NCBI GenBank assembly: GCA_965219455.1
Contig: OZ244744.1
Coordinates: 3,680,001-3,744,000 of the forward strand
Source: Candidatus Latescibacterota bacterium
GTDB lineage: Bacteria > Latescibacterota > UBA2968 > GCA-2709665
Direction of reading: 5' to 3'
DNA: 64,000 nt
The position numbers and the translations under genes are program-made. The notes below the pieces were generated by a model. That model was given only the letters and a program-made list of their open reading frames with translations, did not search any database and had not been told where the DNA came from. Shown piece by piece: positions 18,118 through 40,271 of this stretch; the stretch's first letter is position 1; each line of letters starts with the position of its first letter.

Positions 18118-19260
18118 ATGCAGGTCAAGGCGCTCAGGTTACAGGACGTGGACTACGGCGGCCAATGGGACGAGGAGATCGAGGATCGCTGGGAATATAA
18201 CGATTTCCGGGCCGATTCGGCCTGGCGCGAGGGCTGGATCAGCATGGACAGTGTGTATCACAACGCGGATGACGACCGCGTTTACCTGGGAATTACTTCT
18301 TTCAATGCCGACATATTCCGCGCCTACGATCGCGCGACCGGCGAGTTCGTGGATCTGGGGTACGCAAAAGTCGCCAATCCGTTCGACGCCAAGTTTCACA
18401 GGTCGCTGGTCAGGTGGGAGAAAGACGGTTGTCTGTACGGCGCAATCGCGCTCCTGCACGATATCGATCGGTACTGGGAGGCGCCCGGCGGAGCGATAGT
18501 AAAATACGATCCTGCTACAGGCGAACTCCAGAAGATCGGGGTTCCCATGCCGCATATGTACATCCAGTCCATCTGCCTGGACCAGGAACGCGGCGCGATC
18601 TACGGAATGACGTTTACGCCCGAGCGGATGTTCCGTTTCAACCTCGTTGACGGGCGATCGGACGACCTGGGGCCGATCAGCAGCGGAATGGAAATGGCCC
18701 AGGGCGAGAACGTCGAACTGGACGACGAAGGATGCGTCTGGTGCGGCTGGAGCGTGACGCGGGCGTGGCAGAATTTCGCAGGCGTGGACCGCAACCGGCT
18801 TTGCAAGTTCAACCCTGAAACCGACAGAATCGAGTATTACGACGCGGGTCTCCCCAAACCGGACGGCGCCTACGGGTATGAGAGGGTGGAGGGCATCTTC
18901 AATCTGGGAGAAGGCCGTATGTTCGCCAGCGGCGCCAACGGGTCGATTTACCGGATCGATACGGAGACCGGGGCGGGCACGTATCTCGGCACGCCCGTTG
19001 CGGACCGGCGCAGCAGGCTCACAACGCTGCAGCCCGGCCCCGACGGGGCCGCCTACGGGGTGACCGGACGGGACGGAAAGTGCGAGGTGATCCGATTCGA
19101 CGCGGATGCGGAATCATGGGATCTGCTGGGACCGGTATCCGACGGAGACGCTCACTGCTGGCAGGTCCACGACGTGGCCGTCACACCCGACGGGACAATC
19201 TACGCCGGGGAGAACGACAGCCCCTACCGCAGCGGATATCTGTGGGAGATCAAGATCTGA
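18118..19260 (+). CDS. Cytoplasmic beta-propeller protein
   Basis: Blade-like repeats DGCLYG, KYDPATGE, RIDTETG, GPDGAAYG, TPDGTIYAGE; SD aaaggaga; no signal peptide. Confidence 0.8.
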   Translation: MQVKALRLQDVDYGGQWDEEIEDRWEYNDFRADSAWREGWISMDSVYHNADDDRVYLGITSFNADIFRAYDRATGEFVDLGYAKVANPFDAKFHRSLVRWEKDGCLYGAIALLHDIDRYWEAPGGAIVKYDPATGELQKIGVPMPHMYIQSICLDQERGAIYGMTFTPERMFRFNLVDGRSDDLGPISSGMEMAQGENVELDDEGCVWCGWSVTRAWQNFAGVDRNRLCKFNPETDRIEYYDAGLPKPDGAYGYERVEGIFNLGEGRMFASGANGSIYRIDTETGAGTYLGTPVADRRSRLTTLQPGPDGAAYGVTGRDGKCEVIRFDADAESWDLLGPVSDGDAHCWQVHDVAVTPDGTIYAGENDSPYRSGYLWEIKI

Positions 19261-21513: not shown

Positions 21514-21545
21514 CGGGGGAAGAAAGAAGCAACGACAGCAGAGGA

Positions 21546-21627: not shown

Positions 21628-21664
21628 TCTTTGAGGTCGCAGCCCGATTGCAATGGAGGTGCCG

Positions 21665-21973
21665 ATGATGGAGATGCTCGAAAGCAAGCTCGACGCGATC
21701 GCGAAAGCGTGCAAACGCCATGGCGCCACTCGGCTTGATGCCTTTGGATCGGCTCTGCGCGGAGACTTCCAGCACGTGCAGAGCGACGTGGATCTCCTGG
21801 TAGAACTTGGCCCCATGGAACCTTATGCTCGAGTCGATGCCTACTTCGGCCTGCTGGAAGCGCTGAGATCGATATTGGGGGAGCAAGTGGACCTGGTGGT
21901 TTCAGGAGCCGTGAAGAACTGCTATATCGCAAGTGAAATCGAGCAGACAAAAGAGTTACTGTATGTCCCGTGA
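21665..21973 (+). CDS. mntA: Minimal nucleotidyltransferase antitoxin (MntA, type VII TA)
   Basis: AFGSALRGDFQHVQSDVDLLV (GS-x-DxD); SD ggagg at 21655-21659; overlaps the HEPN gene. Confidence 0.9.
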   Translation: MMEMLESKLDAIAKACKRHGATRLDAFGSALRGDFQHVQSDVDLLVELGPMEPYARVDAYFGLLEALRSILGEQVDLVVSGAVKNCYIASEIEQTKELLYVP

Positions 21974-22322
21974 CGCGAGAGCATACCTGTCTGATGTAAT
22001 CGAGGCCTGCGACGCAATCACTAGCGCTGTCCGTGGGCTCGATTTGCGAAGCTACGAAGGCAACCGGCTCGTGCGTTCCTCCGTCGAACGTGAATTCATC
22101 ATCATCATCGGCGAAGCTCTCGCAGCTGTCAACAGGTTGTCGAAGGAGATCTTCGGCAGCATAACACGGGCTCGACGAATCGTGGACTTTCGCAATCAAC
22201 TGACACATCAGTATCCAAGCGTGGATGACGGTATCGTCTGGGCGATCATTGAACGGGATGTTCCCGTGCTGCGAAGAGAGTGCGCGGCATCGGTTCAACG
22301 CATGCGTCTATCCGATGAATAA
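21963..22322 (+). CDS. hepT: DUF86/HEPN ribonuclease toxin (HepT)
   Basis: MSRDARAYLSD..., SSVERE..IIGEAL, FRNQLTHQY (Rx4HxY), VWAII. Confidence 0.9.
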   Translation: MSRDARAYLSDVIEACDAITSAVRGLDLRSYEGNRLVRSSVEREFIIIIGEALAAVNRLSKEIFGSITRARRIVDFRNQLTHQYPSVDDGIVWAIIERDVPVLRRECAASVQRMRLSDE

Positions 22323-22362
22323 ACATCCCAAGAAGGACGGTGATGGGGCCTGAAGGCTTCCG

Positions 22363-22779
22363 GTGGCTGAGACTCCGGACCGGACGATCAACGCGGGCGA
22401 AAACGACAGCCCCCAGTGCACCGGATATCTGTGGGAGATCAGCCAAAAGGGGAGAAACGCGATGGAACTGATCCCGGGCAACGATAACGTATTCAAAGAT
22501 ATCGGTTTTGATCGCGCAGAAGCGGCGAACTTAAGTGTGCGGCCTGATCTGATGCTGGACCTGAGAAAGTACATCGAATCGAAAGGGTGGACCCAGCGCG
22601 AAGCGGCCGCGTTTTCCGCATCGGTCAGTCGTTACGAGACACGCGCACTGCGGCACCTGCGAAGCAGGGTCGTCGCAGATTGCGACGCATGGTACGATCT
22701 GGACGAGGACGGGACGATTGGTTTTGGTGATTTTCTGCTTTTTGCCAACGCTTTCGGTACGCATAATTCTTCAACCTGA
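22363..22779 (+). pseudogene. Chimeric relic: propeller-gene 3' end + HigA-like N-terminus + EF-hand tag
   Basis: 22363-22440 copies 19174-19251; ATG 22462 begins NDNVFKDIGF..EAANL...YIESKGWTQREAA; the end encodes YDLDEDGTIGFGDFLLFANAFG. Confidence 0.8.
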
Positions 22780-22909
22780 CCCGTCTGCCTCGTGCGAGAA
22801 TTATTGACTGTCGCCAACGGGTCCCCGGTTTTGAAGGCGTTGGAATGGGATGTTTTCGTACCTGTGATTGCAGGAGTCTGGCGTCTGGTCTTAAGCGGAG
22901 GATAGTCCA

Positions 22910-25324
22910 ATGAACACCGGGATCCGTGTGTTCGCAGGTCCAGCCACTCTGTTTGCCTGCGTTCTCACTTTGCTTTCCTCTATACATACGCGCGATGTCT
23001 GTGCTCAGCAGACCGGGTCGACAATCCCGCCAGTTATGGCTGGTGACTTCAGTACCTGGCACCTGCCGGATGGCGCCCTTGCCCGCCTGGGCAAGGGACA
23101 CGTCAGTGAAAGCGATCGTACGCTGGCCTTCGCGCCGAATGGCCGGTACTTCGCCCTCGTCGGGTCTGTCGGTGTGTGGTTGTACGAGGTGGAGCCCTCT
23201 CGCCTCATCGCGCTCCTTCCGTCAGAGGAGAATGCATATTCAGTGGCGTTTTCCCCGGATGGATCGACGCTCGCTTCCGGATTATACAGCGGCATGATTG
23301 AGTTATGGGAAGTCGAGACGGGTACGCGGATTGCCACCATTCAAGGACCGAGTTGGATCAAAGTCAATTCGTTGGCGTTTTCTCCCGACGGACGCACCCT
23401 GGCTGCCGGGACAGAGGGCAACGATATTTATCTGTGGGAAGTATCCACGCGAACAGGGTTTGGGACGCTGGATGGGCATAAGGATCCGGTACGCTCGTTG
23501 GCATTTTCGCCAGACGGTTCGATTCTGGCTTCCGGATCCGTGGACAAGCGCGTCAAGCTTTGGGATGTAGCGTCGCGGGAGGAGGTCTACACGTTTTTGG
23601 GCCACACGGACGGGATAAATTCGGTGGCGTTTTCGCGGGACGGATCCACACTCGCTTCAGGTTCCTGGGATAAGACGGTTGTCTTATGGGACGTCGCTGC
23701 CCGAAAGAGGATAACGCGGCTGTCGGGTCACAGTCGTTCTGTGAATTCAATCGCATTGTCCCCCGACGGCACTCTGGCATCCGGGTCTTTTGACGGCACA
23801 ATCGTGATTTGGGATCTGGCGACCCGCAAAAAGATCGCCAGGATGGCGGAGCCTGGCGTTTGGGTTGGGTCGGTGGCGTTTTCACCAGACGGGGGCACGC
23901 TTGTTTCCGTGGCAACCGACGGTGCGGTTTGGGTGCGGAACATTGAGACGGGAAACACAGAGACGATCGCCGGTCACAATAATGCCTTCTCAATGGCGAT
24001 TTCCCCGGATGGGCTTACGCTTGCTGCCGGTGAGGCGGGGGGCGAGATCCAGCTTTGGGACGTGGCAACCCATGATGAGATCGCCAGATTGCGCGGACAA
24101 CCTGGACTGGTACATTCGCTGGCTTTTTCGCCCGACGGGGCACGGTTGGCGGTTGGGGCCCATGACCTGACGATCCAGCTGTGGGACGTAGCGACCGGCA
24201 AAAGGATCACCACATTGAAGGGACATGAGTCATTTATCCTGTCGCTGGCTTTCTCGCCCGACGGAGCCCTGTTGGCTTCCGGTTCAATTGACAGAACGGT
24301 CAAGCTATGGGATCTGGCGAAGCGAATTGATATTGCGACCCTGGATGGACACGCTGACAGGGTTACGTCGGTCGTTTTTTCGCCGGAAGGGTACACCCTG
24401 GCTTCCGGCTCGTATGATGAGACGGTTCAGTTGTGGGACGTGGCGGCGAGAGAGCGAATCGCCATTCTGGACCGGCACACCGGCTTTGTCCGTTCCTTGG
24501 CAATTTCGCCTGACGGGTCTATCCTGGCTTCCGGTGCATCTGACAATAAAATCCTGCTGTGGGACGTCGAGGCCGGAGAAGAGATCTCCGCGCTTGAGGG
24601 GCATGGGCAAGAGATCCGTTCAGTGGCGTTTTCGTCTGACGGGTCTACGCTGGCTGCCAGCGAGGTTGGAGGGGCGATTCAGCTTTGGGACACGACTGTG
24701 GGAGAAAGGATTGCCAATCTGGGCGGTCGCAACGGTTCGGTCAACTCCGTTGTGTTCTTGAACGACGGAGCGACCCTGGCTTCTCTCTCCTGGGACGGTA
24801 CCGTGCTGCTCTGGGATATGCGGGTTTTCCTGCCCTGGCCACATGCATTGGAGATTGTCTCGGGCGATGATCAGGAAGCGTTGCTGGGTTTGCAGGTGGC
24901 GCAGCCGCTTGCTGTTCTGGTAAGGGATCAGTATGGTGCTCCCCTTGAGGGAGCTCGGGTCAGATTTGCTGTTGTCTCCGGGAGTGGAACACTTGCCGAA
25001 GAGAACGCGGTGACGAATTGGAGTGGCCGGTCTTCAAGCACGTTAAGGGTTGGACGGGAACTGGGTACGATCACTGTCGAGGTGACCGTCGTAGGGATGG
25101 AACAGTCCAAGACCTTCGTCATCAGAGCCGTACCTTCGCCCGACTTTAATCTCGACGGCGCCGTAGATTTTTCCGACTTTCTGGCGTTTGCTTCCGTATT
25201 CGGACTGAATCAGACCGACCAGGGCTTTGACCCGCTGTACGATTTGGACGAGGATGGGTCCATCGGCTTCGGGGATTTTTTGATGATTGTCAGGGCATTT
25301 GGTAAAGAACCGACGATTAATTGA
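22910..25324 (+). CDS. Secreted WD40-repeat protein 1 with Big_1 and dockerin-like EF-hand tail
   Basis: Signal peptide; WHLPDGALARLGKG; about 14 GH..V.S.AFSPDG..LASGS.D..V.LWD repeats; IVSGDDQE Ig-like domain; PDFNLDG...YDLDEDGSIGFGDF. Confidence 0.95.
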   Translation: MNTGIRVFAGPATLFACVLTLLSSIHTRDVCAQQTGSTIPPVMAGDFSTWHLPDGALARLGKGHVSESDRTLAFAPNGRYFALVGSVGVWLYEVEPSRLIALLPSEENAYSVAFSPDGSTLASGLYSGMIELWEVETGTRIATIQGPSWIKVNSLAFSPDGRTLAAGTEGNDIYLWEVSTRTGFGTLDGHKDPVRSLAFSPDGSILASGSVDKRVKLWDVASREEVYTFLGHTDGINSVAFSRDGSTLASGSWDKTVVLWDVAARKRITRLSGHSRSVNSIALSPDGTLASGSFDGTIVIWDLATRKKIARMAEPGVWVGSVAFSPDGGTLVSVATDGAVWVRNIETGNTETIAGHNNAFSMAISPDGLTLAAGEAGGEIQLWDVATHDEIARLRGQPGLVHSLAFSPDGARLAVGAHDLTIQLWDVATGKRITTLKGHESFILSLAFSPDGALLASGSIDRTVKLWDLAKRIDIATLDGHADRVTSVVFSPEGYTLASGSYDETVQLWDVAARERIAILDRHTGFVRSLAISPDGSILASGASDNKILLWDVEAGEEISALEGHGQEIRSVAFSSDGSTLAASEVGGAIQLWDTTVGERIANLGGRNGSVNSVVFLNDGATLASLSWDGTVLLWDMRVFLPWPHALEIVSGDDQEALLGLQVAQPLAVLVRDQYGAPLEGARVRFAVVSGSGTLAEENAVTNWSGRSSSTLRVGRELGTITVEVTVVGMEQSKTFVIRAVPSPDFNLDGAVDFSDFLAFASVFGLNQTDQGFDPLYDLDEDGSIGFGDFLMIVRAFGKEPTIN

Positions 25325-25457
25325 AACAAGGATCGGACACGCGGCGGGAAAGATGGCCGGAGCGAGGATCCGACCAACACTTGAATAAGCTCTGATAAGC
25401 CACCGGACGAGGCACCATTTAACCGCAAATGGCACGTCACACAATCCCGTATTTCAG

Positions 25458-27536
25458 ATGAAAAAGGTCAGCTTGTTTACCCACGCTATGGTTTTGGCCG
25501 GCGTTTTATTTGCGCAAGCCAGCGATTCGCGGGGATACACCCGATGGAATTTGCCCGAAGGCGCAATCGCTCGCCTGGGTAAGGGATATACTTTCTTCGG
25601 CGACCGTTCAGTAGCTTTCTCACCGGATGGGGCGCGTCTGGCGGTAGGCAGTACCATCGGTGTCTGGCTATACGAAACCCACACCGGTGCCGAAGTTGCC
25701 CTGTTTACGGAGGGTGGCTGGGTCACTTCGGTGTCATTTTCGCCGGATGGGAAGACCCTCGCTTCGGGATTAGCGGACGGTACGGTACGTTTGTGGGACG
25801 TCTCCGCACGTATAACAGCCGCCATCCTCGAGGGGCATGCGTCTTGGGTCTGGACTGTGTCGTTTTCGCCGAATGGGAGGACTCTCGCTTCAGGTTCGGT
25901 TGATGGAACGGTGCGATTGTGGGACGTCTCCACGGGAACGATCGCCGCCGTTCTTGTGGGCCATGCAGGTCCGGTGTGGTCGGTATCGTTTTCGCCGGAT
26001 GGGAAGACCCTCGTTTCCGGTTCTCGGGATAAAACGGTGCGGATGTGGGACATTTCCACGGGAAGGACGATTGCCATCTTTGAAGGACACGAGGAGACGG
26101 TCCATTCTGTATCGTTTTCACCGGACGGGAGGACTCTCGCTTCCGGATCCTATGACAAGACGGTGCGTTTGTGGGACGTATCGACGGGTGCAACCAACGT
26201 CATCATTGAAGGGCTAACGTCTTGGGTCAGGTCGGTATCGTTTTCGCCGGATGGTAAGAAGCTTGCTACCGGGTCCAGGGATGGCAAAGTGGTATTGTGG
26301 GACGCAGCGAGCGGCGGGGTCAGGGGCGTATTGTGGTATACGTATGAAGTCATTTCGGTTGTGTTTTCGCCGGACGGAACCACACTTGCCGCCGCGGCCA
26401 CTGGTGAAAGGGACGATACGGTGCGTTTGCTGGACGTGGCTACGGGAGCAACCAGGATTGTCCTTGAAGGTCATATGTATTGGGTCTGGTCGGTGTCGTT
26501 TTCACCGGATGGGACGACTCTAGCGTCCGGCCCAAGGGATGGCAAGGTGCGCTTGTGGGACGTAGCCACACGAGAAACAACCGCGATCGTCGACCGGCAT
26601 GTCTATTCGGTTTATTCAGTGTTGTTTTCACCGGATGGGAGAACTCTCGCTTTCGCGTCACGGGATGCGACGGTGCGGTTGTGGGACGTGGCGACCGAAT
26701 CGACGACCGCCATTCTTGTTGCCATGGGCAGACGCAGCACATTCAAATCTGTGTCGTTTTCTCCGGATGGTAAGATTCTTGCTTCCGGATCGGAAGGTGG
26801 CAACGTGCACCTGTGGGAGGTAGCAACCGGAGCGACAATTGACGTTCTTGAAGGGCATAGTTGGTATGTTGAGTCAGTTTCGTTTTCACCGGATGGGAAG
26901 ACTGTCGCATCCGGCTCATGGGATGAGACCGTGCGTTTGTGGGACGTCGCTACGGGAGAAGCCGATGCCATTCTTGAAGGACATAAGGGATATGTGTTTT
27001 CGGTGTCGTTTTCACCGGATGGAAGGACTGTCGCATCCGGCTCCTCGGACAAGACGGTGCGTTTGTGGGACGTGGAAACGGGAACAACCACCGCCATCCT
27101 TGGAGGCCATACGGAGCCTGTCATTTCGGTTTCATTCTCGCCGGACGGTACCACCCTTGCATCCGGTTCGAACGACAACGACGTGCGTTTGTGGGATGTA
27201 GCAACGGGAGCGACCACCGATATTCTTAAGGGCCATTCACATAGGGTTACCTCCGTGTCGTTTTCGCGGGACGGAACAACCCTCGCTTCCGGTTCCGGCG
27301 ACGGCACGATTCTGCTGTGGGATATGTCGCTCTACATCGCACCTCAAACCGCTGGCCCCGATTTTGATCGGGACGGCGCCGTTGGTTTTGGCGATTTTGT
27401 CGCGTTTGCGTCCGTGTTCGGGTTTGAAAAGGGCGACACCGGATTCGACGCACGGTTCGATTTAGATGGCGATGGGACCATCGGGTTTGGTGATTTTCTG
27501 ATCTTCGCCAACGCCTTCGGCAGAAAACGGTCGTAG
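25458..27536 (+). CDS. Secreted WD40-repeat protein 2 with dockerin-like EF-hand tail (no Big_1)
   Basis: MKK signal peptide; WNLPEGAIARLGKG; about 14 WD40 repeats; PDFDRDG...FDLDGDGTIGFGDFLIFANAFG. Confidence 0.95.
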   Translation: MKKVSLFTHAMVLAGVLFAQASDSRGYTRWNLPEGAIARLGKGYTFFGDRSVAFSPDGARLAVGSTIGVWLYETHTGAEVALFTEGGWVTSVSFSPDGKTLASGLADGTVRLWDVSARITAAILEGHASWVWTVSFSPNGRTLASGSVDGTVRLWDVSTGTIAAVLVGHAGPVWSVSFSPDGKTLVSGSRDKTVRMWDISTGRTIAIFEGHEETVHSVSFSPDGRTLASGSYDKTVRLWDVSTGATNVIIEGLTSWVRSVSFSPDGKKLATGSRDGKVVLWDAASGGVRGVLWYTYEVISVVFSPDGTTLAAAATGERDDTVRLLDVATGATRIVLEGHMYWVWSVSFSPDGTTLASGPRDGKVRLWDVATRETTAIVDRHVYSVYSVLFSPDGRTLAFASRDATVRLWDVATESTTAILVAMGRRSTFKSVSFSPDGKILASGSEGGNVHLWEVATGATIDVLEGHSWYVESVSFSPDGKTVASGSWDETVRLWDVATGEADAILEGHKGYVFSVSFSPDGRTVASGSSDKTVRLWDVETGTTTAILGGHTEPVISVSFSPDGTTLASGSNDNDVRLWDVATGATTDILKGHSHRVTSVSFSRDGTTLASGSGDGTILLWDMSLYIAPQTAGPDFDRDGAVGFGDFVAFASVFGFEKGDTGFDARFDLDGDGTIGFGDFLIFANAFGRKRS

Positions 27537-27680
27537 AGTCGGCGTTGTGTATAAAGCGAGTGAATCCTTCAACCGAGATTGGCCGGAATCTGAAAGGATG
27601 GGTCTACCAGTGATCCGGGCCTTGCGCCTGACCATTGGCAGGATGAGTGAAATCCGGTCTATATTACACAGGGCATCGTA

Positions 27681-30104
27681 ATGAACCGCCGAGCACTTTT
27701 TACCACCGCGCTGGAATGGTTCATCGCCTGCCAAATTGCGTTTCCATTCGCTTTGATTCCAGGCGACGCCTTCGGTCAGAAGACACAGGCGCGTGTCCAC
27801 GTAACTCCTGATGATGACTATCGAAATTGGCAATTGCCCGGCGGCGCAATGGTCCGCCTGGGAAAAGGTCACCTTGCTCAACGAAACACGCCATTTGCCT
27901 ACTCAGCGGATGGTCGAACTCTTGCCGTGGCGAGTAGTATAGGCATCTGGCTTTACGATGTAGCCACCACTCGTGCTCTTGCGCTGTTACCCACTGAACA
28001 TAGAGTCCAGGCCGTCTCGTTTTCGCCTGACGGGATGACCCTCGCGTCCGGGGAAAGCAGAACCGTCAAACTGTGGGACGTGACGGCAAGGAGCCACATC
28101 AGGTCCCTCGAGCATCTGAAAACGGTCTCTTCCATATCATTTTCGTCCGACGGCACGTTTCTGGCGTCCGCGGTGTACAGAGACGTCATAATTTGGGAGG
28201 TAGAGACGGGTAAACAGGTCGCCTCGCTTGCGCACCAAAAACGCGTCACAGCGGTTCTTTGTTCTCCCATCGGGACGATTCTCGCGACCAGTCAGGGTAG
28301 AGACGTGAACATGTGGGATTTGGCTACCAGAGAACAGATCGCCACATTTAAACATCCGAAATGGGTCACTGCGATTTCATTTTCGCCCGGTGGCTCGACC
28401 CTGGTTTCGGGTTCAGATGATTCGAAGATCAGGTTGTGGGACGTGGCCACAGAACAACAGATCGGTATTTTCAGGCATGAGAGTTCGGTCACTTCGGTAT
28501 CTTATTCTCCCGATGGTTCGACCCTCGCTGCGGGCGCATACAATAAGAAGGTTAAGCTCTGGGACGTGGCGACGAGGAACCATACCGCCACCCTGGAGCA
28601 CCTGGGAACGGTGTCTTCGTTGTTGTATACGGAAGTGCTGTTTTCTCCCGACGGCTCGACCCTGGCTACGGGATCTCTTGATGGCACATTAAGGCTCTGG
28701 GATGTCGAGGCGAGAAATGCGGCTACGATTGAGGGGCATGTAAAAGCGGGCCGGTCCGTTTCATTTTCTCCTGACGGTTCGACCCTCGTAATGGGGCTAA
28801 GAGACGGCAAGATCAAACTGTGGGACGTAGATAAAGGAACTGTTGTTACGATTCAAGGACATGCCCGGGGAGTACGTTCCGTGTCGTTTTCGCCCGATGG
28901 GGCTTCGCTTGTTTCCGGGTCAAGCGATAAGACCATCAAGCAATGGGATCTGGCCACAAGAGAACACGTCGCAACCTTTGTGGGGCATACAGGACCGGTT
29001 AATTCGGTTTCATATTCATCCGACGCAACTATGTTGGCGTCCGGTTCAGCTGATAAAACGGTCAGGCTGTGGGACGTTGAAACAAGAATGCAGATCGCCT
29101 CTTTTGAATGGCATACGAGAACGGTAAACTCTGTTTCTTTTTCTCCAGATGGGGCGTTCGTCGCTTCTGCATCCGGAGATGAAACGGTCAAGCTGTGGGA
29201 CGTGGCGACCAGAGAACAGGTCGCCACGTTCGATGCCCATTCTTCACTTGTCCTCTCCGTGGCATTTTCGCCCGACGGGGCGACTATCGCTTCCGCGTCG
29301 GCCGATAGGACGGTCAGGATATGGGATGTAGCGAAGAGAAGACACATCGCTACCCTTGCGCTTTCCGGACCGCTGGAGTCCGGGCCAATCGAGAGCCCGA
29401 CGGTAGTATTTTCCCCAAATGGTGCAACACTTGCTTCCGGGTCAAGTGGTGGAACAGTATCTCTGTGGAACACGTCGACAAGAAAAGAGATCGCCGCCTT
29501 CTCGGGGCACACGAGGCAAGTCACGTCTTTGTCATTTTCGCCCAACGGGAACATCCTCGCTTCAGGATCTTACGACGGCACCGTTCTGGTGTGGGATCTG
29601 CAGAGTTCCCCACGCAGGCCATATACATTCGTGAAGGTCTCAGGCAAGAAACAGGAAGGTGTGGTTGGTTCGCGGTTGACGAAGCCGTTTGTCGTGATCG
29701 TACGGGATCAATTCGGAGATCCGTTGCCGAACGCACAAGTCAGGTTCGTCGTTGTCTCGGGAACAGGGACTCTGGCCGTCGAGCGTACATTGACGGGCTC
29801 GGATGGACGGGCAGCCAGCAGGTTGACGTTAGGACGGGAACCGGGCGAAATCACGGTTGAGGTAACCGTCGCAGGATTCGAACATTTCCTCACCTATGTC
29901 GTAAAGGCATTGCCTTCGCCCGACTTCGATGGCGACGGCGTGGTCGGATTTGGCGATTTCGTGCAATTCGCACCGTTGTTTGGAATAGGTCAGGACGAAG
30001 CAGGATTCGACCCACGGTACGATCTGGATGAGGACGGGAGAATCGGATTTGGAGATTTCGTGATCTTTGCCAAAGCATTCGGTAAAGAAGCAACATCAAT
30101 CTGA
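27681..30104 (+). CDS. Secreted WD40-repeat protein 3 with Big_1 and EF-hand tail
   Basis: Signal peptide; WQLPGGAMVRLGKG; WD40 repeats; KVSGKKQEG Ig-like domain; EF-hand tail; close paralogue of protein 4. Confidence 0.95.
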   Translation: MNRRALFTTALEWFIACQIAFPFALIPGDAFGQKTQARVHVTPDDDYRNWQLPGGAMVRLGKGHLAQRNTPFAYSADGRTLAVASSIGIWLYDVATTRALALLPTEHRVQAVSFSPDGMTLASGESRTVKLWDVTARSHIRSLEHLKTVSSISFSSDGTFLASAVYRDVIIWEVETGKQVASLAHQKRVTAVLCSPIGTILATSQGRDVNMWDLATREQIATFKHPKWVTAISFSPGGSTLVSGSDDSKIRLWDVATEQQIGIFRHESSVTSVSYSPDGSTLAAGAYNKKVKLWDVATRNHTATLEHLGTVSSLLYTEVLFSPDGSTLATGSLDGTLRLWDVEARNAATIEGHVKAGRSVSFSPDGSTLVMGLRDGKIKLWDVDKGTVVTIQGHARGVRSVSFSPDGASLVSGSSDKTIKQWDLATREHVATFVGHTGPVNSVSYSSDATMLASGSADKTVRLWDVETRMQIASFEWHTRTVNSVSFSPDGAFVASASGDETVKLWDVATREQVATFDAHSSLVLSVAFSPDGATIASASADRTVRIWDVAKRRHIATLALSGPLESGPIESPTVVFSPNGATLASGSSGGTVSLWNTSTRKEIAAFSGHTRQVTSLSFSPNGNILASGSYDGTVLVWDLQSSPRRPYTFVKVSGKKQEGVVGSRLTKPFVVIVRDQFGDPLPNAQVRFVVVSGTGTLAVERTLTGSDGRAASRLTLGREPGEITVEVTVAGFEHFLTYVVKALPSPDFDGDGVVGFGDFVQFAPLFGIGQDEAGFDPRYDLDEDGRIGFGDFVIFAKAFGKEATSI

Positions 30105-30212
30105 CGTGTCTGACGAAAGGGCTGCGATTTGTCGGCAACATGGCCGACGATCGCACCGAGTCGGGGAAGTTCACGCACCAGCGGTTTTCTGAGTAAAATG
30201 TCCGTTGCTTAA

Positions 30213-32651
30213 ATGGAAGCTAACCTAATGAACCATAGATTCTCTTTAATGGCTGGTATTCCGGGGTTGATTGGCTGTATTGCCGCGTTTTTGTACGTCC
30301 CCTGTCCTGGCGACGCGTACGCGCAGCAAAACCAGACCCCATTCCCGCCGAACATGGGTCCTGATCTTCGAAAATGGCAACTGCCCGGCGGCGCAATGAT
30401 CCGCCTGGGAAAAGGACACCTTCCGTTACGCAAGAACCCGTTTGCCTTTTCAACGGACGGCCGGATCCTCGCAGTGGCAAGCAGCATCGGCATCTGGCTC
30501 TACGATGTAACGACCTTTCGTCCTCGTGCCCTGTTACCCACTGCGTTCAAAGCAGAATCTGTGTCTATCGCTCCGGACGGAACGGCCGTTGCTGCCGGGG
30601 AGGGCAGAACCGTCAAGATTTGGGACGTGGCGACAGGAGATCATTTCGCCTCCTACGTGCATCTGGTCCCGGTTGCTTCGGTGTCGTTTTCGCCCGATTG
30701 GTTGACCTTCGCGTCGGCGGTGGACGTAACCGCGAAAATATGGGACGTAGCGAGCGGGAAACAGATCGCTTCGTTTGAGCATCCGAGCCTGGTCAATTCG
30801 GTGTTGTATTCTCCCGTTGGGACAATTCTCGCGACAAGGGAGTACTTTACTGTGAGGCTGTGGGATGTGGCGACTGGAAAGCAGAAAGCCACTCTCGAGC
30901 ATCCGCGAGCTGTCACTTCGGTGTCGTTTTCTCCCGATGGCGCGATCGTGGCCACGGTTGGGTACGATTCGAAGATCAGGCTGTGGGACGTGGCGACAGG
31001 GCAACAGACCGGCACCCTTGGAAACTCGTCAGCGGTCGCCTATGCGTCGTTTTCTCCCGATGGATTGACACTTGCTGCAGGCACATATAGCAGCAACGTC
31101 GTTCTTTGGGACGTTGCGTCAGGGAGCGAAATCGACACGCTTGAGCATCTGACCACAGTACCGTCGTTCCTGTTCAACGCGGTTTTGTTTTCTCCCGACG
31201 GGTCCAGCCTTGCATCGGGAACTTCCGATGGCACGGTCAGGCTCTGGGACGTCGGGACGGGAGAATTCGAGACCATTGACGGGCACGTGCGGGTGGGTCA
31301 GTCCGTGTCGTTTTCTCCGGACGGGTCTACTCTCGCCATGGGATCGAGTGATGGCAAGGTCCGGCTGTGGAATGCAAAGACAGGGAGTACTGACACCATT
31401 GAGCCGCATCTGAGATCCGTCCAATCCGTGTCTTTTTCGCCAGATGGGACGACACTGGCTTCGGGGTCAGAGGAGCTGGCGGTCAAGCTCTGGGACGTGG
31501 CGACAAATGAACACGTTACCTCCTTTGTGGGACACAACGGATTCATTAATTCGGTGTCCTTTTCGCCCGACGGGGATGTCTTAGCTACCGGATCAGACGA
31601 CAAAACGGTCAAGCTGTGGGACGTGGAAACAGGAGGGCAGATCGCCAGCTTTGAATGGCATACAAGAACCGTCAATTCGGTGTCGTTCTCGCCTGATGGG
31701 GCGATCGTCGCTTCCGCGTCAGACGATGAGACGGTCAAGCTGTGGGACGTGGCGGAAAAAAAGCAGATCACCACGCTCGACGCGCATACTTCCCTGGTCC
31801 TTTCGGTGTCGTTCTCGCCCGATGGGAACATCCTCGCTTCCGCGTCACGCGATAGAACGGTCAGGCTATGGGATGTGGCAACGGGAGAACAGATTGCTAG
31901 ATTTGTGCATACTGGACCCCGCGAGTCCGGACCGATCCAGAGCCCGACCGTCGCGTTTTCGCCGAATGGCGCTGTTCTTGCTTCCGGTTCAGGTGGAGGT
32001 ACCGTCAGGCTGTGGAACACGACGACAAGAAAAGAGATAGCCACATTCTTCGGGCATACAAGGCAGGTCTCATCGGTTGCAGTTTCTCCTGACGGCACGA
32101 TCCTCGCTTCGGGGTCTCTGGATGGCACGGTTCTGCTGTGGGATCTGACAAAATCCCAGCGGAGGCCCTACGAGTTGGTCAAAATTTCGGGCGACAAACA
32201 GAAAGGACCGATGGGTTCGGAATTGGAGAATCCGTTTGTCGTTATAGTACGAGATCAATTTGGAGATCCGTTGTCTCGAGCACAGGTCAGGTTTACAGTT
32301 ATCTCAGGAAGTGGCACCCTTGCTGTTGAGCACACGTTGACAGGATCGGAAGGCCGTGCAACGAGCAGGCTGACGGTAGGACGAGAACTGGGCGCGACCA
32401 GCATTGAGGTAACCGTTGCAGGAACGCAACATTCCCTGACCTTTGTCGTAAGAGCGTTGCCTTCGCCCGACTTTGATGGTGACGGAAACGTCGGCTTTGC
32501 TGACTTTTTGAATTTTGTCAGCGTGTTCGGCCTGAATTGGGGCACCGTTGGGTACGATGTACTGTTCGATCTGGACGAGGATGGGACCATCGGGTTTGGC
32601 GATTTTCTGATCTTTGCCAACGCGTTTGGCAAAGAAGCTTCGTCCGGTTGA
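30213..32651 (+). CDS. Secreted WD40-repeat protein 4 with Big_1 and EF-hand tail
   Basis: Signal peptide ending DAYA-Q; WQLPGGAMIRLGKG; shares FEWHTRTVNSVSFSP and the ESGPI insertion with protein 3; start may be ATG 30228. Confidence 0.95.
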   Translation: MEANLMNHRFSLMAGIPGLIGCIAAFLYVPCPGDAYAQQNQTPFPPNMGPDLRKWQLPGGAMIRLGKGHLPLRKNPFAFSTDGRILAVASSIGIWLYDVTTFRPRALLPTAFKAESVSIAPDGTAVAAGEGRTVKIWDVATGDHFASYVHLVPVASVSFSPDWLTFASAVDVTAKIWDVASGKQIASFEHPSLVNSVLYSPVGTILATREYFTVRLWDVATGKQKATLEHPRAVTSVSFSPDGAIVATVGYDSKIRLWDVATGQQTGTLGNSSAVAYASFSPDGLTLAAGTYSSNVVLWDVASGSEIDTLEHLTTVPSFLFNAVLFSPDGSSLASGTSDGTVRLWDVGTGEFETIDGHVRVGQSVSFSPDGSTLAMGSSDGKVRLWNAKTGSTDTIEPHLRSVQSVSFSPDGTTLASGSEELAVKLWDVATNEHVTSFVGHNGFINSVSFSPDGDVLATGSDDKTVKLWDVETGGQIASFEWHTRTVNSVSFSPDGAIVASASDDETVKLWDVAEKKQITTLDAHTSLVLSVSFSPDGNILASASRDRTVRLWDVATGEQIARFVHTGPRESGPIQSPTVAFSPNGAVLASGSGGGTVRLWNTTTRKEIATFFGHTRQVSSVAVSPDGTILASGSLDGTVLLWDLTKSQRRPYELVKISGDKQKGPMGSELENPFVVIVRDQFGDPLSRAQVRFTVISGSGTLAVEHTLTGSEGRATSRLTVGRELGATSIEVTVAGTQHSLTFVVRALPSPDFDGDGNVGFADFLNFVSVFGLNWGTVGYDVLFDLDEDGTIGFGDFLIFANAFGKEASSG

Positions 32652-32786
32652 TCCGTGGATCGTACACCCAGCCGGAAAGATAAAGGGAACTGAAACTCGA
32701 TCGACACCTTCGGACGCATCAGTAACCGACCAGATCCGACAGCTGTTATAACAACGAATGGCACCCTACCAAATCTCGAATCTAAA

Positions 32787-34862
32787 ATGAAAAAGCTCAG
32801 CTTGTTTAACATCGCACTGTTATTTGCCTGTGTCGCGTTCGCGCAAGCCAGTTTTGCGCAGGACTATATTCGATGGAGTTTGCCCGATGGCGCAATCGCC
32901 CGCTTGGGAAAAGGAAGCGTTGGTGGCGGTGACAGAGCGGTGTCGTATTCACCCGATGGCACGCGCCTTGCCGTGGGTAGTAGCGCCGGAATCTGGCTTT
33001 ACGACGCTCGTACAGGAACCGAAGACACCCTTTTTTCGGACCATGGGCATTGGATCAGTTCTCTTTCATATTCGCCCGACGGAACCTCGGTTGCTACGGA
33101 TGGCGATTATTCCGTGCTTACCTGGGACGTGGTGACAGGAGAAATTACCGCTGTATATGAAGGTCATGAGTATTGGGTCACTTCGGTGTCATATTCGCCG
33201 GATGGAACCAATATCGCATCCGGATCGGCTGATAACACGGCGCGAGTCTGGGACGTAGACACTGGAGAAAACACCGCCATCTTTGGTGGACACGCAGGTC
33301 GGATCACTTCGGTGGCATATTCGCCAAATGGAACCGCCATCGCAACGGGTTCTTGGGATGGAGTGGTGCGGACCTGGGATATAGAGACTGGAGTGAATGC
33401 CGCCACACTTGAAGGGCATCTGAGTAGGATCACTTCGGTAGCGTATTCACCTGATGGTACAACCGTCGCTGCGGGATCCAGGGAAGGAGCGGTACGTGTG
33501 TGGGACCTGAACACAAAGTCTATTTCAGCGACCTTTGGTTGGTTATCTCCCGTTACGACTGTGACGTATTCGCCTGATGGTACGAAGATCGCTTACGGGG
33601 TGGGGTACAGAGTGGCGATCTGGGACTCCGCGATTCGCGGATTTCTCGCCAGCCGGACATTGGGGTATACAGATGGGCACGTCCGTTCTTTAGCCTATTC
33701 ACCAGATGGGACTACCGTCGCTGCCGGGTCCGGGGACGGTACGGTGAGGATCTGGCACATAGCGACAGGAGCAAGAATCAGCATTCGCGGAGGACATTTT
33801 CCGTGGGTCACTACTCTGGCGTATTCGCCGGATGGTACCGCGCTGGCATCCGGGTATATTGATGGAAGGGTGCGTATCTGGGACGTTGTGACAGGAACAG
33901 ATCCCAGGACGCTTGGAGCCTATGTACGATCCGTCACATCTCTGGCATATTCGCCGGATGGGAGAAACTTCGCATGCGGATTGGCGGAGAATGGTACGGT
34001 GCAGATCTGGGATGCAGGCACAGGAGAAAATATCGCCATTCTCAAAGGTCACAAGGCCAGGGTCAGGGCGGTAGCGTATTCGCCGGAGGGGACCGTGTTG
34101 GCTTCCGGATCCAATGATGGTACGGTGCGTGTGTGGGACGTATCCAACAATTCAAATATCGGCGTACTTGAGGGTCATACGGGTAATGTCCATGCGGTGG
34201 CGTTTTCGCCGGACGGAACCGTCCTGGCTTCCGGGTCTGAGGATAAGACGGTACGATTGTGGGACGCAGCCAACAGAGTAACTGCCGGAATCCTTGAAGG
34301 GCATATCGGCGGAGTGAATTCCGTGACGTTTTCGCCGGAAGGGAGCTTGCTTGCTGTTGGGTGTAACGATAAGACGGTGCGTCTGTGGGACGTAGCCGCT
34401 GGCAGTATGTTGGCAGAGTTCGAAGGGCATGCGGGTGGCGTCGCTTCGGTGTCGTTTTCGCCCGATGCTAAGACTCTTGCTTCCGGATCTGGTGATAACA
34501 CGGTGCGTTTGTGGAACATAACCAATGGTGAGCTCATCGCTATTCTTGGAGGGCATACTTGGCATGTTACTTCGGTGACGTTTTCGCCCGATGGGAAAAC
34601 TTTTGCTTCCGGTTCAGCGGATGGCACGATACTGCTTTGGGATATGTCGCAGTACATCTCGCCTCCACCACCCAACCCCGATTTCAATGGCGATGGCGTG
34701 GTCGGATTTGGCGATTTCGTGCAGTTTGCTGCAACGTTCGGATTCAGTCAGGGCGATGCAGGATACGACACTCGGTTCGACCTGGACGGAGACGGCACGA
34801 TCGGCTTTGGAGATTTTTTGTTATTTGCCGATGCTTTCGGAAGCGAACCGTCATCAAATTGA
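32787..34862 (+). CDS. Secreted WD40-repeat protein 5 with EF-hand tail (no Big_1)
   Basis: MKK signal peptide ending SFA-Q; WSLPDGAIARLGKG; YSPDG-type repeats followed by FSPDG-type repeats; EF-hand tail. Confidence 0.95.
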   Translation: MKKLSLFNIALLFACVAFAQASFAQDYIRWSLPDGAIARLGKGSVGGGDRAVSYSPDGTRLAVGSSAGIWLYDARTGTEDTLFSDHGHWISSLSYSPDGTSVATDGDYSVLTWDVVTGEITAVYEGHEYWVTSVSYSPDGTNIASGSADNTARVWDVDTGENTAIFGGHAGRITSVAYSPNGTAIATGSWDGVVRTWDIETGVNAATLEGHLSRITSVAYSPDGTTVAAGSREGAVRVWDLNTKSISATFGWLSPVTTVTYSPDGTKIAYGVGYRVAIWDSAIRGFLASRTLGYTDGHVRSLAYSPDGTTVAAGSGDGTVRIWHIATGARISIRGGHFPWVTTLAYSPDGTALASGYIDGRVRIWDVVTGTDPRTLGAYVRSVTSLAYSPDGRNFACGLAENGTVQIWDAGTGENIAILKGHKARVRAVAYSPEGTVLASGSNDGTVRVWDVSNNSNIGVLEGHTGNVHAVAFSPDGTVLASGSEDKTVRLWDAANRVTAGILEGHIGGVNSVTFSPEGSLLAVGCNDKTVRLWDVAAGSMLAEFEGHAGGVASVSFSPDAKTLASGSGDNTVRLWNITNGELIAILGGHTWHVTSVTFSPDGKTFASGSADGTILLWDMSQYISPPPPNPDFNGDGVVGFGDFVQFAATFGFSQGDAGYDTRFDLDGDGTIGFGDFLLFADAFGSEPSSN

Positions 34863-34941
34863 CTGCCTGTCATTACGGATATGTGTGCGCATGCTTGCGC
34901 TCGATTGCCCCAGGTTCCCTTTACCCAAACTCGATTCCCTC

Positions 34942-36888
34942 ATGAAAAAGCGCCGTTTTATAGATATGGGTTTGTGTGTGGCCTGCGTTTTATTCGTGCA
35001 GGACAGCGTTGCGCAGGACTATATTCGATGGAGTTTGCCCGATGGCGCAATCGCTCGCCTGGGAAAAGGAGCCAACGCTCCTGGCGAGCGGTCAGTCGTG
35101 TTTTCACCCGATGGAACACGTTTAGCTGTGGGCAGCAGTGCCGGTATCTGGCTTTATAATGCCCGCACAGGTACCGAAACTGCCCTGTTCCGCGGGGGTG
35201 GCTGGGTCATTTCGGTATCGTTTTCGCCGGATGGCGCCACCCTGGCTTCCAGTTACTCTGATGGGACGGTCCGTTTGTGGGATGTATCCGCTGAGACGAC
35301 CACCACCATTCTGCGCGGACATACGGGAACAGTTTATTCGGTGTCGTTTTCGCCTGACGGAACCACACTCGCCACCGGATCCCGGGATAAGACCGTGAGA
35401 CTGTGGGACGTGTCCACGGGTGCAAACATCGCCATCTTCCAGGGCCACGCGGACGAGGTCCTTTCGGTGTCATTCTCGCCGGATGGGTCCGCAATTGCTT
35501 CCGGTTCCATAGACAGGACGGTGCGTTTGTGGGATGTGTCCACGGGAGAAAACACCGCCATTCTCCTGGGGCACACGAGTCGGGTCCATTCGGTTTCGTT
35601 TTCCCCGGACGGGACCACGCTCGCCACCGGGTCTCGTGACAGGTCAGTGCGTTTGTGGGACGTAGCTGCGGGAACAAACACCGCCACACTTCGGGGGCAC
35701 AGGGGATATGTCCTTTCGGTGTCGTTTTCGCCGGACGGGGGCACTGTCGCTTCCGGCGCCCTGGATGGCAGCGTGGTTTTGTGGGACGTAGCCTTGGAAA
35801 CAGACACCGCACGTCTTTGGGGGCACAGGGGATATGTCCTTTCGGTGTCGTTTTCGCCGGATGGAGGGGTTGTCGCTTCCGGCGCCACGGATGGCACGGT
35901 GCGTCTGTGGGACGTCGACACGGGAACCGCAAATTCGATATTGCAAGGGCACAGCCGTGGAGTCCTTGCCGTGTCGCTTTCTCAAGACGGGAAGACTCTG
36001 GCTTCCGGAGCGTGGGACAGCAATGTACGCCTATGGGACGTAACCACGGGTGATGTGACCGCCATTCTTGAAGGGCATAAACACGAAGTATCTTGTGTGT
36101 TGTTTTCGCCGGACGGGAAGACCCTGGCTTCCGGCGCCTTCGACGGTACCGTAAGATTGTGGGACGTATCCACGGGCGCCACCACAGCCATACTGGAAGG
36201 ACATATCGCGTATATCAGATCGGCGTCGTTTTCGCCGGACGGGAAGACCCTGGCTTCCGGATCCTATGACAGTTCGGTGCGTTTGTGGGATGTCTCCACT
36301 GGCGAAACGACGGCCATCCTTGAAGTGCAGGGAGAGGTTGTCACCGCAGTATCGTTTTCGCCGGACGGGACTGCTATTGCGTCTGGCTCCGGGATTGGCA
36401 CGGTGCGTTCATGGGACGTGGCCACGGGAGCCAGGATCGCTACAATCGAAAGTCAACGCGGCTCAATCTCTTCCCTTGCTTTTGTCGGGGACGAAAACAT
36501 CCTCGCTGCCGGGTCAGGTGACGGGACGTTACGGCTGTTTGACCTCGCCAATGGAGCAATGATCGCCAACCTTGACGGGCACACGTCGGGGGTCACTTCG
36601 GTGTCATACTCGCCAGAGTTGTCGGTTCTCGCTTCCGGATCCGGAGATGGCACGATTCTGCTGTGGGATACGTTGCCCTATACCGCTCCTCAAACCGCTG
36701 GTCCCGATTTTGACGGAAATGGAACCGTTGATTTTGCCGATTTTGTGGCGTTTGCCGCCGCATTTGGGCTAAGTCATGGCGATTCGGGATTCGATCCGCT
36801 ATACGATCTGGACGAGGATGGGACCATCGGGTTTGGCGATTTTCTGATCTTTGCCAACGCGTTTGGCAAAGAAGCGACATCAACTTGA
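34942..36888 (+). CDS. Secreted WD40-repeat protein 6 with EF-hand tail (no Big_1)
   Basis: Start reassigned to MKKRRF (ATG 34942) by analogy with proteins 2 and 5; WSLPDGAIARLGKG; near-identical internal repeats; EF-hand tail. Confidence 0.93.
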   Translation: MKKRRFIDMGLCVACVLFVQDSVAQDYIRWSLPDGAIARLGKGANAPGERSVVFSPDGTRLAVGSSAGIWLYNARTGTETALFRGGGWVISVSFSPDGATLASSYSDGTVRLWDVSAETTTTILRGHTGTVYSVSFSPDGTTLATGSRDKTVRLWDVSTGANIAIFQGHADEVLSVSFSPDGSAIASGSIDRTVRLWDVSTGENTAILLGHTSRVHSVSFSPDGTTLATGSRDRSVRLWDVAAGTNTATLRGHRGYVLSVSFSPDGGTVASGALDGSVVLWDVALETDTARLWGHRGYVLSVSFSPDGGVVASGATDGTVRLWDVDTGTANSILQGHSRGVLAVSLSQDGKTLASGAWDSNVRLWDVTTGDVTAILEGHKHEVSCVLFSPDGKTLASGAFDGTVRLWDVSTGATTAILEGHIAYIRSASFSPDGKTLASGSYDSSVRLWDVSTGETTAILEVQGEVVTAVSFSPDGTAIASGSGIGTVRSWDVATGARIATIESQRGSISSLAFVGDENILAAGSGDGTLRLFDLANGAMIANLDGHTSGVTSVSYSPELSVLASGSGDGTILLWDTLPYTAPQTAGPDFDGNGTVDFADFVAFAAAFGLSHGDSGFDPLYDLDEDGTIGFGDFLIFANAFGKEATST

Positions 36889-38522: not shown

Positions 38523-40271
38523 ATGGAGACAACAATGGTTACAGGCAACGGACGGGTGCAGCGGGAGCGGCGTACCACTTCCGGCAACGGGGCATTGCTG
38601 GTGGTTATCGACAGCGGCGGGCCGTACTGGGAGCGGATGATTGTGGACGAGACGGTTCTGTTGGCGCTGGCGCATTTCGGGATGCCCTATCGGTTGCTGG
38701 ATCTGGCCCAGGAACGGCCGACGCCGGAAGCCTTGAGCCAGTGCGCGGGCATCATCATTGCGCAGAACGGACTGGGCGCGTGTCTGAGCGAAGCGGAGAC
38801 AGCGTTGGTTGCCGACGCGGTTCGCAACGGCGCCGGGCTGGTCAATTTCGATTACGATCTGAGGGCATATAAGGGACCCCTGCTGGAGATTTTCGGGTTC
38901 GACCGGATCAACCCGCATCCGTACGCCACCGATACGGTGCGAATTGCAGATGGGGAGCACTATATCACGCAACTGCAATCCCCTGGTGAATTACACACGT
39001 TCGACCGGATGGTGACGGCAATTGCCGCCGAAAAGTGGGGCGATTCGGTTATGACGCTGGCCGACGGGATACTGGGAAAAGAGCAGTTGATCTATATCCG
39101 GCACCTGGCGCCGTGGAGCGCGTTCGAACCGCGCAACTATCCCCTGGTGTTTGCAACGGAATGGGGAGCGGGTCGGGCGGTACAGTTCACGTTGAATTCC
39201 CGGGTATGGCGGAACGCGTTTTTCGGCCACGCCCGCGGGATGGACGACCTGTTCTGGCGGTCTATCGTATGGACGGCCCGCAAGCCGTTCGCCGCCAATA
39301 TGATTCCGCCGTTTGTGACCATGTCCTGGGACGACTGCGAAGGGCGTCACGATTTCACGTACGCCGAAATCGCGAGTCGCTATGGGTACAAACCGATGCC
39401 CTCCCTGTTTATCAGGAACGTGCCGGAACGACTGTTTCCCAAAATCAGGGCCGGAATCCAGAGCGGAGAAATTCACTACAACAGCCACGCGCTGGACTAC
39501 TATCAACTGCTGATTTACAATTTCGGGAAGGGCGAGTGCTCGCAGGAGGAACTGGAGTCGAACTTCGCCTTTGTGGACGCATTCTGGAAGCGTGTAGGGG
39601 TCTATCCGGGTGCGACGCTGCGATTCCACTGGGGGGAGTACGGGGTGAGGGCGCTGCCCTATCTGAAGGCGCGAGGCCACCGGTTTTTCTGCCCGGCCCT
39701 GCAGACGGGGCTGCACAAGGCCGATATGTGCATGCAGGACGGTTTCTGGCCGTACGGATTGCAGACGTGCTACTACGATTATCTGCCGGACGATCACGAC
39801 TTTTTCGCGTTTGCGGCCATGCTGGCCCGTCACCAGGAGGATTTTCTGACGGGATGCACCCCCTATTTGCGCGAGAATGAAAGGACCGACGTCGAAAAGG
39901 CGGCGGGAAACGCCGCCCGGCAGATTCGCCACGGGTTGCGTGCCGGATTCTACGCGGAGATCGTGACGCACGAGCAGAAATTCGACGCCGTTACCATGGA
40001 CCAATGGGACCGGATTCTGAGTCGAACCGATGCGTTGACGGACGGGTTTGAGAAGGTCTATGCGAGCCACGACGAGATCGGCCATTATCTGCAGGGAAAA
40101 GACGGCGTATGGCTGGAGGAAGTCTCGGTGGGAGGGAGCGCGCTACGGAGAACGCTGGCAGGCAGGACGTCTGCGCAGCTGCGCCTTTCCGTATTTCGTA
40201 ACGTGGGCGATTCAGTCGAACGCGAATACCAGGAAGTTGACGCGTTCGAGGGACGAGCGGAGGTCGGGTGA
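38523..40271 (+). CDS. Hypothetical protein with a GATase-like N-terminus and a polysaccharide-deacetylase-like domain
   Basis: ALAHFGMPYRLLD, VRNGAGLV, GAGRAVQF, MSWDDCEG...HYNSHAL, FHWGE. Confidence 0.65.
   Translation: METTMVTGNGRVQRERRTTSGNGALLVVIDSGGPYWERMIVDETVLLALAHFGMPYRLLDLAQERPTPEALSQCAGIIIAQNGLGACLSEAETALVADAVRNGAGLVNFDYDLRAYKGPLLEIFGFDRINPHPYATDTVRIADGEHYITQLQSPGELHTFDRMVTAIAAEKWGDSVMTLADGILGKEQLIYIRHLAPWSAFEPRNYPLVFATEWGAGRAVQFTLNSRVWRNAFFGHARGMDDLFWRSIVWTARKPFAANMIPPFVTMSWDDCEGRHDFTYAEIASRYGYKPMPSLFIRNVPERLFPKIRAGIQSGEIHYNSHALDYYQLLIYNFGKGECSQEELESNFAFVDAFWKRVGVYPGATLRFHWGEYGVRALPYLKARGHRFFCPALQTGLHKADMCMQDGFWPYGLQTCYYDYLPDDHDFFAFAAMLARHQEDFLTGCTPYLRENERTDVEKAAGNAARQIRHGLRAGFYAEIVTHEQKFDAVTMDQWDRILSRTDALTDGFEKVYASHDEIGHYLQGKDGVWLEEVSVGGSALRRTLAGRTSAQLRLSVFRNVGDSVEREYQEVDAFEGRAEVG

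Follow-up and report, generated by a model that had tools for sequence, protein, structure and literature searches.

How do the eukaryote-like repeat proteins of sponge symbionts get outside the cell? The question is an open one in the literature: sorting tails (TIGR04183) are often found on the WD40 proteins of Poribacteria, with no secretion genes found (PMC3909097), and few secretion systems were found in another study (PMC8163846). The question is raised anew by a tandem array of six WD40 genes at positions 22910-36888 of the window, by which we mean the whole analysed stretch of 64,000 nucleotides (nt; contig OZ244744.1, positions 3,680,001 to 3,744,000), part of a closed 5.84-Mb genome. 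We take the source organism to be a member of Latescibacterota; its sponge habitat is inferred from the literature on the lineage (PMC8163846, PMC12993501), the record itself being silent.

In short, we propose that the six genes belong to a family found throughout the genus, whose products would be WD40 binding proteins exported by Sec. Their C-terminal type II-like dockerin would act as a Ca-dependent plug. This plug would dock on the cohesins of carriers with a sorting tail for type IX secretion (T9SS), namely small adaptors consisting of a signal peptide, a cohesin, and a C-terminal domain (CTD) for sorting, as well as larger scaffolds. Docking would place the propellers on or outside the outer membrane with their top faces outward, where they would bind partners outside the cell. 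Proteins of the host or of the matrix are the most plausible candidates, as the default expectation for WD40 domains. The repertoire would change as genes are duplicated or lost, as single blades are occasionally added or dropped, and as blocks are exchanged among congeners at a recombination-prone site, and not by homogenising and shuffling near-identical repeats. Export, cohesin binding, outer-membrane crossing, and the ligand are the parts that we infer, and we hold the whole explanation (Sec export, docking on cohesin-CTD carriers, surface propellers, and a repertoire shaped by birth, death, and exchange) to be evenly poised between right and wrong.

The six genes and their shared tail

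The array consists of six co-oriented open reading frames (ORFs) on the plus strand.

22910..25324 (+): gene 1, 804 aa; signal peptide, cap motif, 14 WD40 blades, Big_1, dockerin at 25136-25321 (+)
25458..27536 (+): gene 2, 692 aa; signal peptide, 14 blades, dockerin at 27354-27533 (+)
27681..30104 (+): gene 3, 807 aa; signal peptide, 14 blades, Big_1, dockerin at 29916-30101 (+)
30213..32651 (+): gene 4, 812 aa (807 from the alternative start 30228); built as gene 3, dockerin at 32463-32648 (+)
32787..34862 (+): gene 5, 691 aa; signal peptide, 14 blades, dockerin at 34674-34859 (+)
34942..36888 (+): gene 6, 648 aa; signal peptide, 13 blades, type II-like dockerin at 36700..36885 (+)

An earlier note on this DNA, made from the letters alone, had described six co-oriented genes of one architecture, and this description holds. 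All six carry the cap motif WxLPxGAxxRLGKG, the PF00400 (WD40) scores of 347-458 bits mark the ~42-aa GH...WD repeat in each array protein, and Big_1 (Pfam E about 2e-8) precedes the tail in only genes 1, 3, and 4. The longest ORF of gene 6 begins at 34591; since it overlaps gene 5 by 272 nt and since 34942 (MKKRRF) yields a signal peptide that resembles the ones in genes 2 and 5, position 34942 is most likely the start. The export that the note had supposed finds its signals in the N-termini, which by a simple heuristic show basic residues and a hydrophobic stretch in six of six, with an A-x-A/G site followed by Q in five. In this group Gln at +1 marks proteins that are exported; a gene for glutaminyl cyclase is present in the genome. 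Domain scans of the six proteins found neither a NACHT or effector domain nor a catalytic domain.

The structure model of gene 2, made from a six-row alignment, is an all-beta propeller protein (predicted local distance difference test score, pLDDT, 82.5); its best Foldseek match is the repetitive propeller 2ymu (E 9e-55, 42% identity), and double seven-bladed propellers are also at the top. Genes 3 and 4 are the closest paralogs (64%). A quick tree sorts the six into three old lineages (gene 1; genes 3 and 4; genes 2, 5, and 6; branches 0.11-0.81), on which ground we reject a recent tandem duplication of one gene. Relatives of gene 4 are 36-52% identical among the best 120 listed, which were ranked by repeat number, and the homologue loci kept for the six-protein alignment (n=79) are nearly all named Latescibacterota, Poribacteria, or Gemmatimonadota.

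A tail of ~60 residues is common to all six genes (60-72% identity). The note had called it a double EF-hand; that the tail is shared stands, but it is a type II-like dockerin, as profile and fold both show. A 95-row tail profile searched against the PDB retrieves type II dockerins first (2y3n at E 4e-11, 4u3s at 1e-10, and 4wi0, down to 5e-10), with calmodulin-type chains following from E 6e-9 and filling most of the remaining rows. The tail model (pLDDT 94) has two helices, and its ten best Foldseek rows are cohesin-dockerin entries with template modelling (TM) scores of 0.64-0.86, against at most 0.30 for calmodulin-like rows. Likewise, the 15 best rows of the VIA search are dockerins, the best with a root-mean-square deviation of 1.6 over 52 residues. 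Both Ca loops keep Asp1 and Asp12 (four Asp) invariant in 95 of 95 rows, and only gene 1 of the six passes the Pfam Dockerin_1 cut-off. A plain EF-hand pair is thus ruled out by these dockerin-first profile, Foldseek, and VIA matches.

The Big_1 domain goes with the tail: all 11 ORFs with this Big_1 type carry the dockerin, and in 10 it lies immediately N-terminal to it. By its place in the protein, Big_1 stands where type II X module-dockerin (XDoc) pairs have their Ig-like X module. The long and short stalks of the note are better read as forms with or without an X-module-like domain.

Cohesin carriers and secretion genes

Are there partners for such a plug? Type II cohesin-dockerin pairs usually serve cell-surface attachment (PMC12484212), and the genome holds candidates for both halves of the pair in quantity. 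The dockerin tail occurs in 111 ORFs, in 63 of them at the C-terminus; 35 of these 63 are WD40 proteins, and 36 of the 41 WD40 ORFs in the genome bear it. Some WD40-dockerin ORFs have long N-terminal extra domains, and an HExxH-type motif is present in 16 of the 111. All 40 relatives examined in the order have the tail, at 25-124 copies per genome. Across the phylum it is present in 134 of 151 genomes, mostly at low copy outside the order (in this wider count, up to 42 were registered per genome).

Cohesins are encoded by 23 ORFs (24 domains), of which Pfam finds 11 places and our own profile, built from those, the rest; by this profile no ORF has more than two. They are present in 15 of 15 genomes of the genus. 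Six intact ORFs are small signal-cohesin-CTD carriers, and the one checked passes the cut-offs of both TIGR04183 and Cohesin. A small cohesin-CTD carrier lies at G000:C1:5268556-5269401; other classes in the genome have an N-terminal or a double cohesin. Two of these genes form an identical pair (G000:C1:703516-704343 and 708998-709825) within a cluster of dockerin genes, and four further intact and two broken carriers lie elsewhere in the genome. The T9SS is represented by an SprA translocon gene (631 bits), five PorV-like shuttle genes (one of them 9 kb before the window), and one C25/PorU-like sortase gene with a CTD. GldN, the only one searched among GldK/L/M/N, had no match in the genome, nor any in the control genomes. 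No secretin was found by a search that matched in 6 of 14 control genomes, and export by the type II secretion system is rejected on that ground. The common docking scaffold that the note had imagined is supported by the dockerin tag, the cohesins, and the T9SS-type genes of one genome.

Relatives show the same propeller with other tails. At the homologue loci, a dockerin forms the C-terminal end of 51 of the 63 WD40 ORFs from Latescibacterota, and among 96 from Poribacteria the scan, whose pattern favours dockerins, gave 26 with a CTD, 3 with a dockerin-like match, and 67 with no recognised tail. The different tails on the same propeller point to one module with exchangeable tags. Four Poribacteria arrays (L036, L044, L065, and L080) have 4-9 propeller genes each; these share the cap motif but carry no recognised C-terminal tag.

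Several observations weigh against the display of the propellers by way of cohesin carriers. As regards the matches themselves, the Foldseek E-values of the short tail are weak (1.6e-3 to 0.07), its best VIA Z is only 7.5, and the cohesins match solved structures weakly (E 1e-4 to 0.08). In the genome, dockerin ORFs outnumber cohesin domains by ~4.6 to 1 (111 to 24), 14 cohesin ORFs bear a dockerin of their own, many members of the WD40-dockerin family are broken, and the 67 untagged Poribacteria homologues show that the propeller can exist without a tag. As for the route, the PorU-like score lies under the equivalog cut-off (232 of 420), and the T9SS CTD (TIGR04183/PF18962) is absent from the six proteins and from all 41 WD40 ORFs, so that the six would need to hitchhike through SprA or take another route; we know of no precedent for T9SS hitchhiking. 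The boldest form of the proposal, in which ~100 Sec-exported proteins without a sorting tail ride outward on T9SS-exported cohesin carriers and the WD40 arrays form a host-recognition library traded among congeners, we would call doubtful.

The same imbalance between dockerins and cohesin domains, the lack of a CTD on any of the 41 WD40 ORFs, and the missing secretin would also fit Sec-exported proteins that stay in the periplasm or leave in vesicles, the dockerin then being a Ca-binding tag for stability or self-association, or serving docking within the envelope, with no display at all. We judge this unlikely, as cohesins occur in every genome of the genus and are fused to T9SS CTDs, the same propeller bears a CTD in Poribacteria (see also PMC3909097), and a subtilase, an enzyme of extracellular type, has the same tail. 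This gene (Peptidase_S8, 7368-10460, +) ends in the same Big_1-dockerin as the array genes.

Turnover of the array and diversity of its repeats

How does the repertoire of propellers change? The array lies between two conserved genes, and a remnant of a tail stands in front of it.

18118..19260 (+): left conserved flank gene, 91-96% identity in 14 of 14 congeneric genomes
22683..22784 (+): relic dockerin end (second Ca loop and helix) behind a helix-turn-helix (HTH) fragment; repeat family D18, 75-86% identity to the six gene ends
38523..40271 (+): right conserved flank gene, 84-96% identity in 14 of 14 congeneric genomes

The flank genes adjoin each other in all 14 congeners, where the gap between them is 0.04-10.4 kb, against 19.3 kb here. 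In the 90% cluster of the flank gene, those members that have a name are proteins of metagenome-assembled genomes of Latescibacterota or Gemmatimonadota. WD40 genes are missing from the site in 13 of the 14 congeners; only G011 has any, namely genes 1 and 6, both frameshifted (gene 1 at 82% identity across the propellers). In others the gap contains an AAA ATPase, pieces of HepT or HTH genes, a gene of cadherin-like type, or a different dockerin protein. To judge by its sequence, the remnant at 22683..22784 is the relic of a lost array member. An AAA ATPase, a HepT-like RNase, and an HTH_37 fragment at 19918-22779 are patchy among the congeners and thereby mark the site as a gene hot spot.

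Some further observations concern the site and its surroundings. A cadherin-like beta-sandwich protein (36972-38273, -) is at the site in only G008, G011, and G013; an IS1595-family transposase lies in the site copy of G011 (L094:12112-13074); and G009 has a different dockerin protein there (901 aa, L107:4042-6747) with a weak metallopeptidase match. To the right, at 40312-46505, follow a polysaccharide deacetylase, two amidohydrolases, and a heparinase II/III-like gene. The repeat search of the window found no inverted repeats. Its promoters and terminators (7 and 21 found) were about as many as expected by chance (8.4 and 20.1), and lend no support to an operon structure.

Metagenomes add a view of related strains (only long contig pieces were used, and joints with sides below 30 letters were ignored as matches of other organisms). 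In run X9, one 17.8-kb contig (depth 12) has the left core gene at 88% identity (135 differences over 1,162 nt) beside genes 1-2 (22997-27857) at 99% identity (49 differences over 4,861 nt). The contig lacks 27858-29062, an out-of-frame deletion of 1,205 nt in gene 3; a stretch below 88% replaces 29601-31377, and 31378-34751 is 95% alike. The breakpoints recur in run X10 from another study, on separate contigs and including the deletion in gene 3, and in run X5 most of the array is nearly unchanged. Gene 6 has one 126-nt repeat missing and one extra in X10, and it differs by single 126-nt repeats in G011 as well. The 5' end of gene 1 (22910-22996), where the signal peptide lies, aligns to nothing in G011, X9, or X10; in all three the matches to gene 1 start near 22997, a common breakpoint.

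The core alleles listed for X9 equal those of G007 at 21 of 21 sites; the site of G007 is empty, and the synonymous divergence (dS) of its core from the present genome (G000) is 0.56. From nearly identical genes 1-2 beside a core gene at 88%, together with this empty site, we read a probable recent transfer between species, in either direction, and presence or absence within a species. In ten cross-genome WD40 pairs, hand-picked as the closest and thus biasing the comparison, dS is below that of one core gene in nine, by about half or more in six. No lateral transfer of WD40 genes was seen in the study PMC8163846.

Arrays of this kind are normal in the genus, and the family occurs in 15 of 15 genomes. 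A second, larger array of about 12 genes, several of them split, lies at G000:C1:4388574-4416300 (L108, L109). Its site, with common flanks in the congeners checked, has 1-11 genes outside G000: about 11 in G002 and G013, 9 in G010, 6 in G008, and 2 in G006, with fragments in G003 and G009. The content of the arrays thus differs between relatives and strains, as the note had expected, and with 41 WD40 ORFs and a larger array in the same genome the present one is not special.

Does each member matter? Empty sites in 13 congeners and two frameshifted orthologs in the 14th, the out-of-frame deletion in X9 and X10, the split members of the second array, and the relic tail would all suit a largely dispensable birth-and-death family at a recombination hot spot, with little benefit per member. 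We find this distinctly improbable, since the ratio of nonsynonymous to synonymous divergence (dN/dS) of the repeat framework is 0.11 (0.085-0.139), close to the core genes, since six frames are intact despite old paralogs, and since a family present throughout the genus has repeatedly spread across species.

The remaining claims of the note concern the repeats. Of 88 pattern hits, 53 canonical repeats were retained, with a within-gene identity of 54% for protein (gene means 0.48-0.61) and 62% for DNA, so that "nearly invariant" overstates the framework. All six motifs quoted for gene 2 are in its translation, and the variable residues do fall on the WD40 top-face positions R1-2, R1, and D-1 (defined as in PMC3419727). 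Entropy peaks at GH+3 (that is, R1-2) and D-1 with 3.7 bits, and about 25% of the residues at these two positions are aromatic. Gene 2 stands out with 36% aromatics at three hotspot positions, against 11-26% in the other genes. This pattern is generic: 13 unrelated WD40 proteins with cyanobacterial or Streptomyces names have 3.4-3.5 bits and 29-32% aromatics at R1-2 and R1, and variable hotspots are known from repetitive prokaryotic WD40 proteins (PMC5587647).

Compared with their G011 orthologs, genes 1 and 6 give 24 repeat pairs, in which dN/dS is 0.52 at the top-face positions and 0.12 in the framework; three core genes have 0.07-0.12 in the same comparison. At R1-2 and D-1, 38% of codons are changed, against 10% of the framework. 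Family-wide (171 repeat pairs in 24 non-overlapping gene pairs out of 61 candidates), it is 0.56 (0.41-0.72) at top-face sites and 0.46 (0.39-0.51) at other exposed sites; these are pooled counts that include some broken genes, after filtering at 72% identity, which removes the repeats that have diverged furthest. The framework is thus under purifying selection, and the top-face ratio is below 1 and not distinct from that of other exposed sites; the pooled counts show no positive selection there, though pooling could hide a few selected codons.

A library of the HET-E kind, its repeats homogenised and shuffled and its top-face codons under diversifying selection versus host or phage, would extend the analogy that the note had drawn, and the high entropy, the excess of top-face changes, the single-repeat differences in gene 6, and the patchy allele replacement are in its favour; it is nonetheless very improbable, given that 0 of 1,378 repeat pairs reach at least 85% DNA identity (best 83%, against up to 100% in the NWD family; PMC1805685), that the dN/dS ranges overlap, that control WD40 proteins are as variable and aromatic, and that a NACHT or effector domain is missing. 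We return to the preferred reading: variation here appears to arise by gene birth, death, and exchange, not by hypermutation.

Significance and comparison with known systems

With its dockerin tag, its cohesin-CTD carriers, and SprA/PorV, this closed genome offers a candidate display route for symbiont proteins, and the strain data suggest that the repertoire turns over by whole-gene exchange between species rather than by hypermutation. If true, hitchhiking T9SS export would be a concrete delivery route for symbiont eukaryote-like proteins, and arrays would be swapped for host adaptation. The parts are known (abundant symbiont WD40 proteins, CTD-tagged Poribacteria WD40 proteins, and Cloacimonadota dockerin proteins with a CTD scaffold). 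Dockerins are not mentioned in the excerpts of PMC3909097 and PMC12993501 nor in the main text of the WS3 paper (PMC4454575), and the open-access literature, with supplements and subscription papers outside the scope, gave no account of dockerin-tagged WD40 arrays in Latescibacterota.

One of the closest known systems is the type II XDoc/cohesin attachment of cellulosomes (CipA XDoc of C. thermocellum, ScaA XDoc of A. cellulolyticus, and the enzyme dockerins of B. cellulosolvens; 2y3n, 4u3s, and 5g5d). Common to both are the duplicated Ca loop-helix fold with the top sequence and structure matches, cohesins in the same genome, and, in genes 1, 3, and 4, an Ig-like domain immediately before the dockerin. 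On the other hand, the host here is diderm, the passengers are WD40 proteins and not cellulases, the binding is a prediction from sequence and model, and the carriers end in T9SS CTDs instead of SLH or sortase anchors. Hydrolases on a multi-cohesin scaffoldin with a carbohydrate-binding module (CBM), the mark of a cellulosome, were not found for the six proteins, with at most two cohesins per ORF.

Candidatus Stygibacter (Cloacimonadota), whose system was inferred from genomes only, likewise has proteins that begin with a signal peptide and end in a dockerin, an S8 peptidase among them, and a CTD-bearing cohesin scaffold (PMC8542988). It is described with one large CBM scaffoldin and a few hydrolases, whereas here each genome has ~110 dockerin ORFs, one third of which encode WD40 proteins, with mobile tandem arrays and small single-cohesin carriers. 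The abundant "eukaryote-like" WD40 proteins of Poribacteria and Latescibacterota (PMC3909097, PMC8163846, PMC12993501) belong to the same propeller family at 38-52% identity, but the dockerin replaces the CTD of Poribacteria. With repetitive prokaryotic WD40 proteins (PMC5587647; 2ymu) the array shares a conserved framework with variable hotspots; unlike the highly repetitive ones, its proteins are dockerin-tagged and apparently exported, and their mean internal identity of 0.54 is below the 0.7 or more of that class, by a measure that differs from that of PMC5587647. Finally, fungal NWD/HET-E proteins vary in the same two top-face loops and occasionally gain or lose a repeat (PMC1805685), whereas the proteins of this array have no NACHT or effector domain, no near-identical repeats, and no detected positive selection, and are probably exported.

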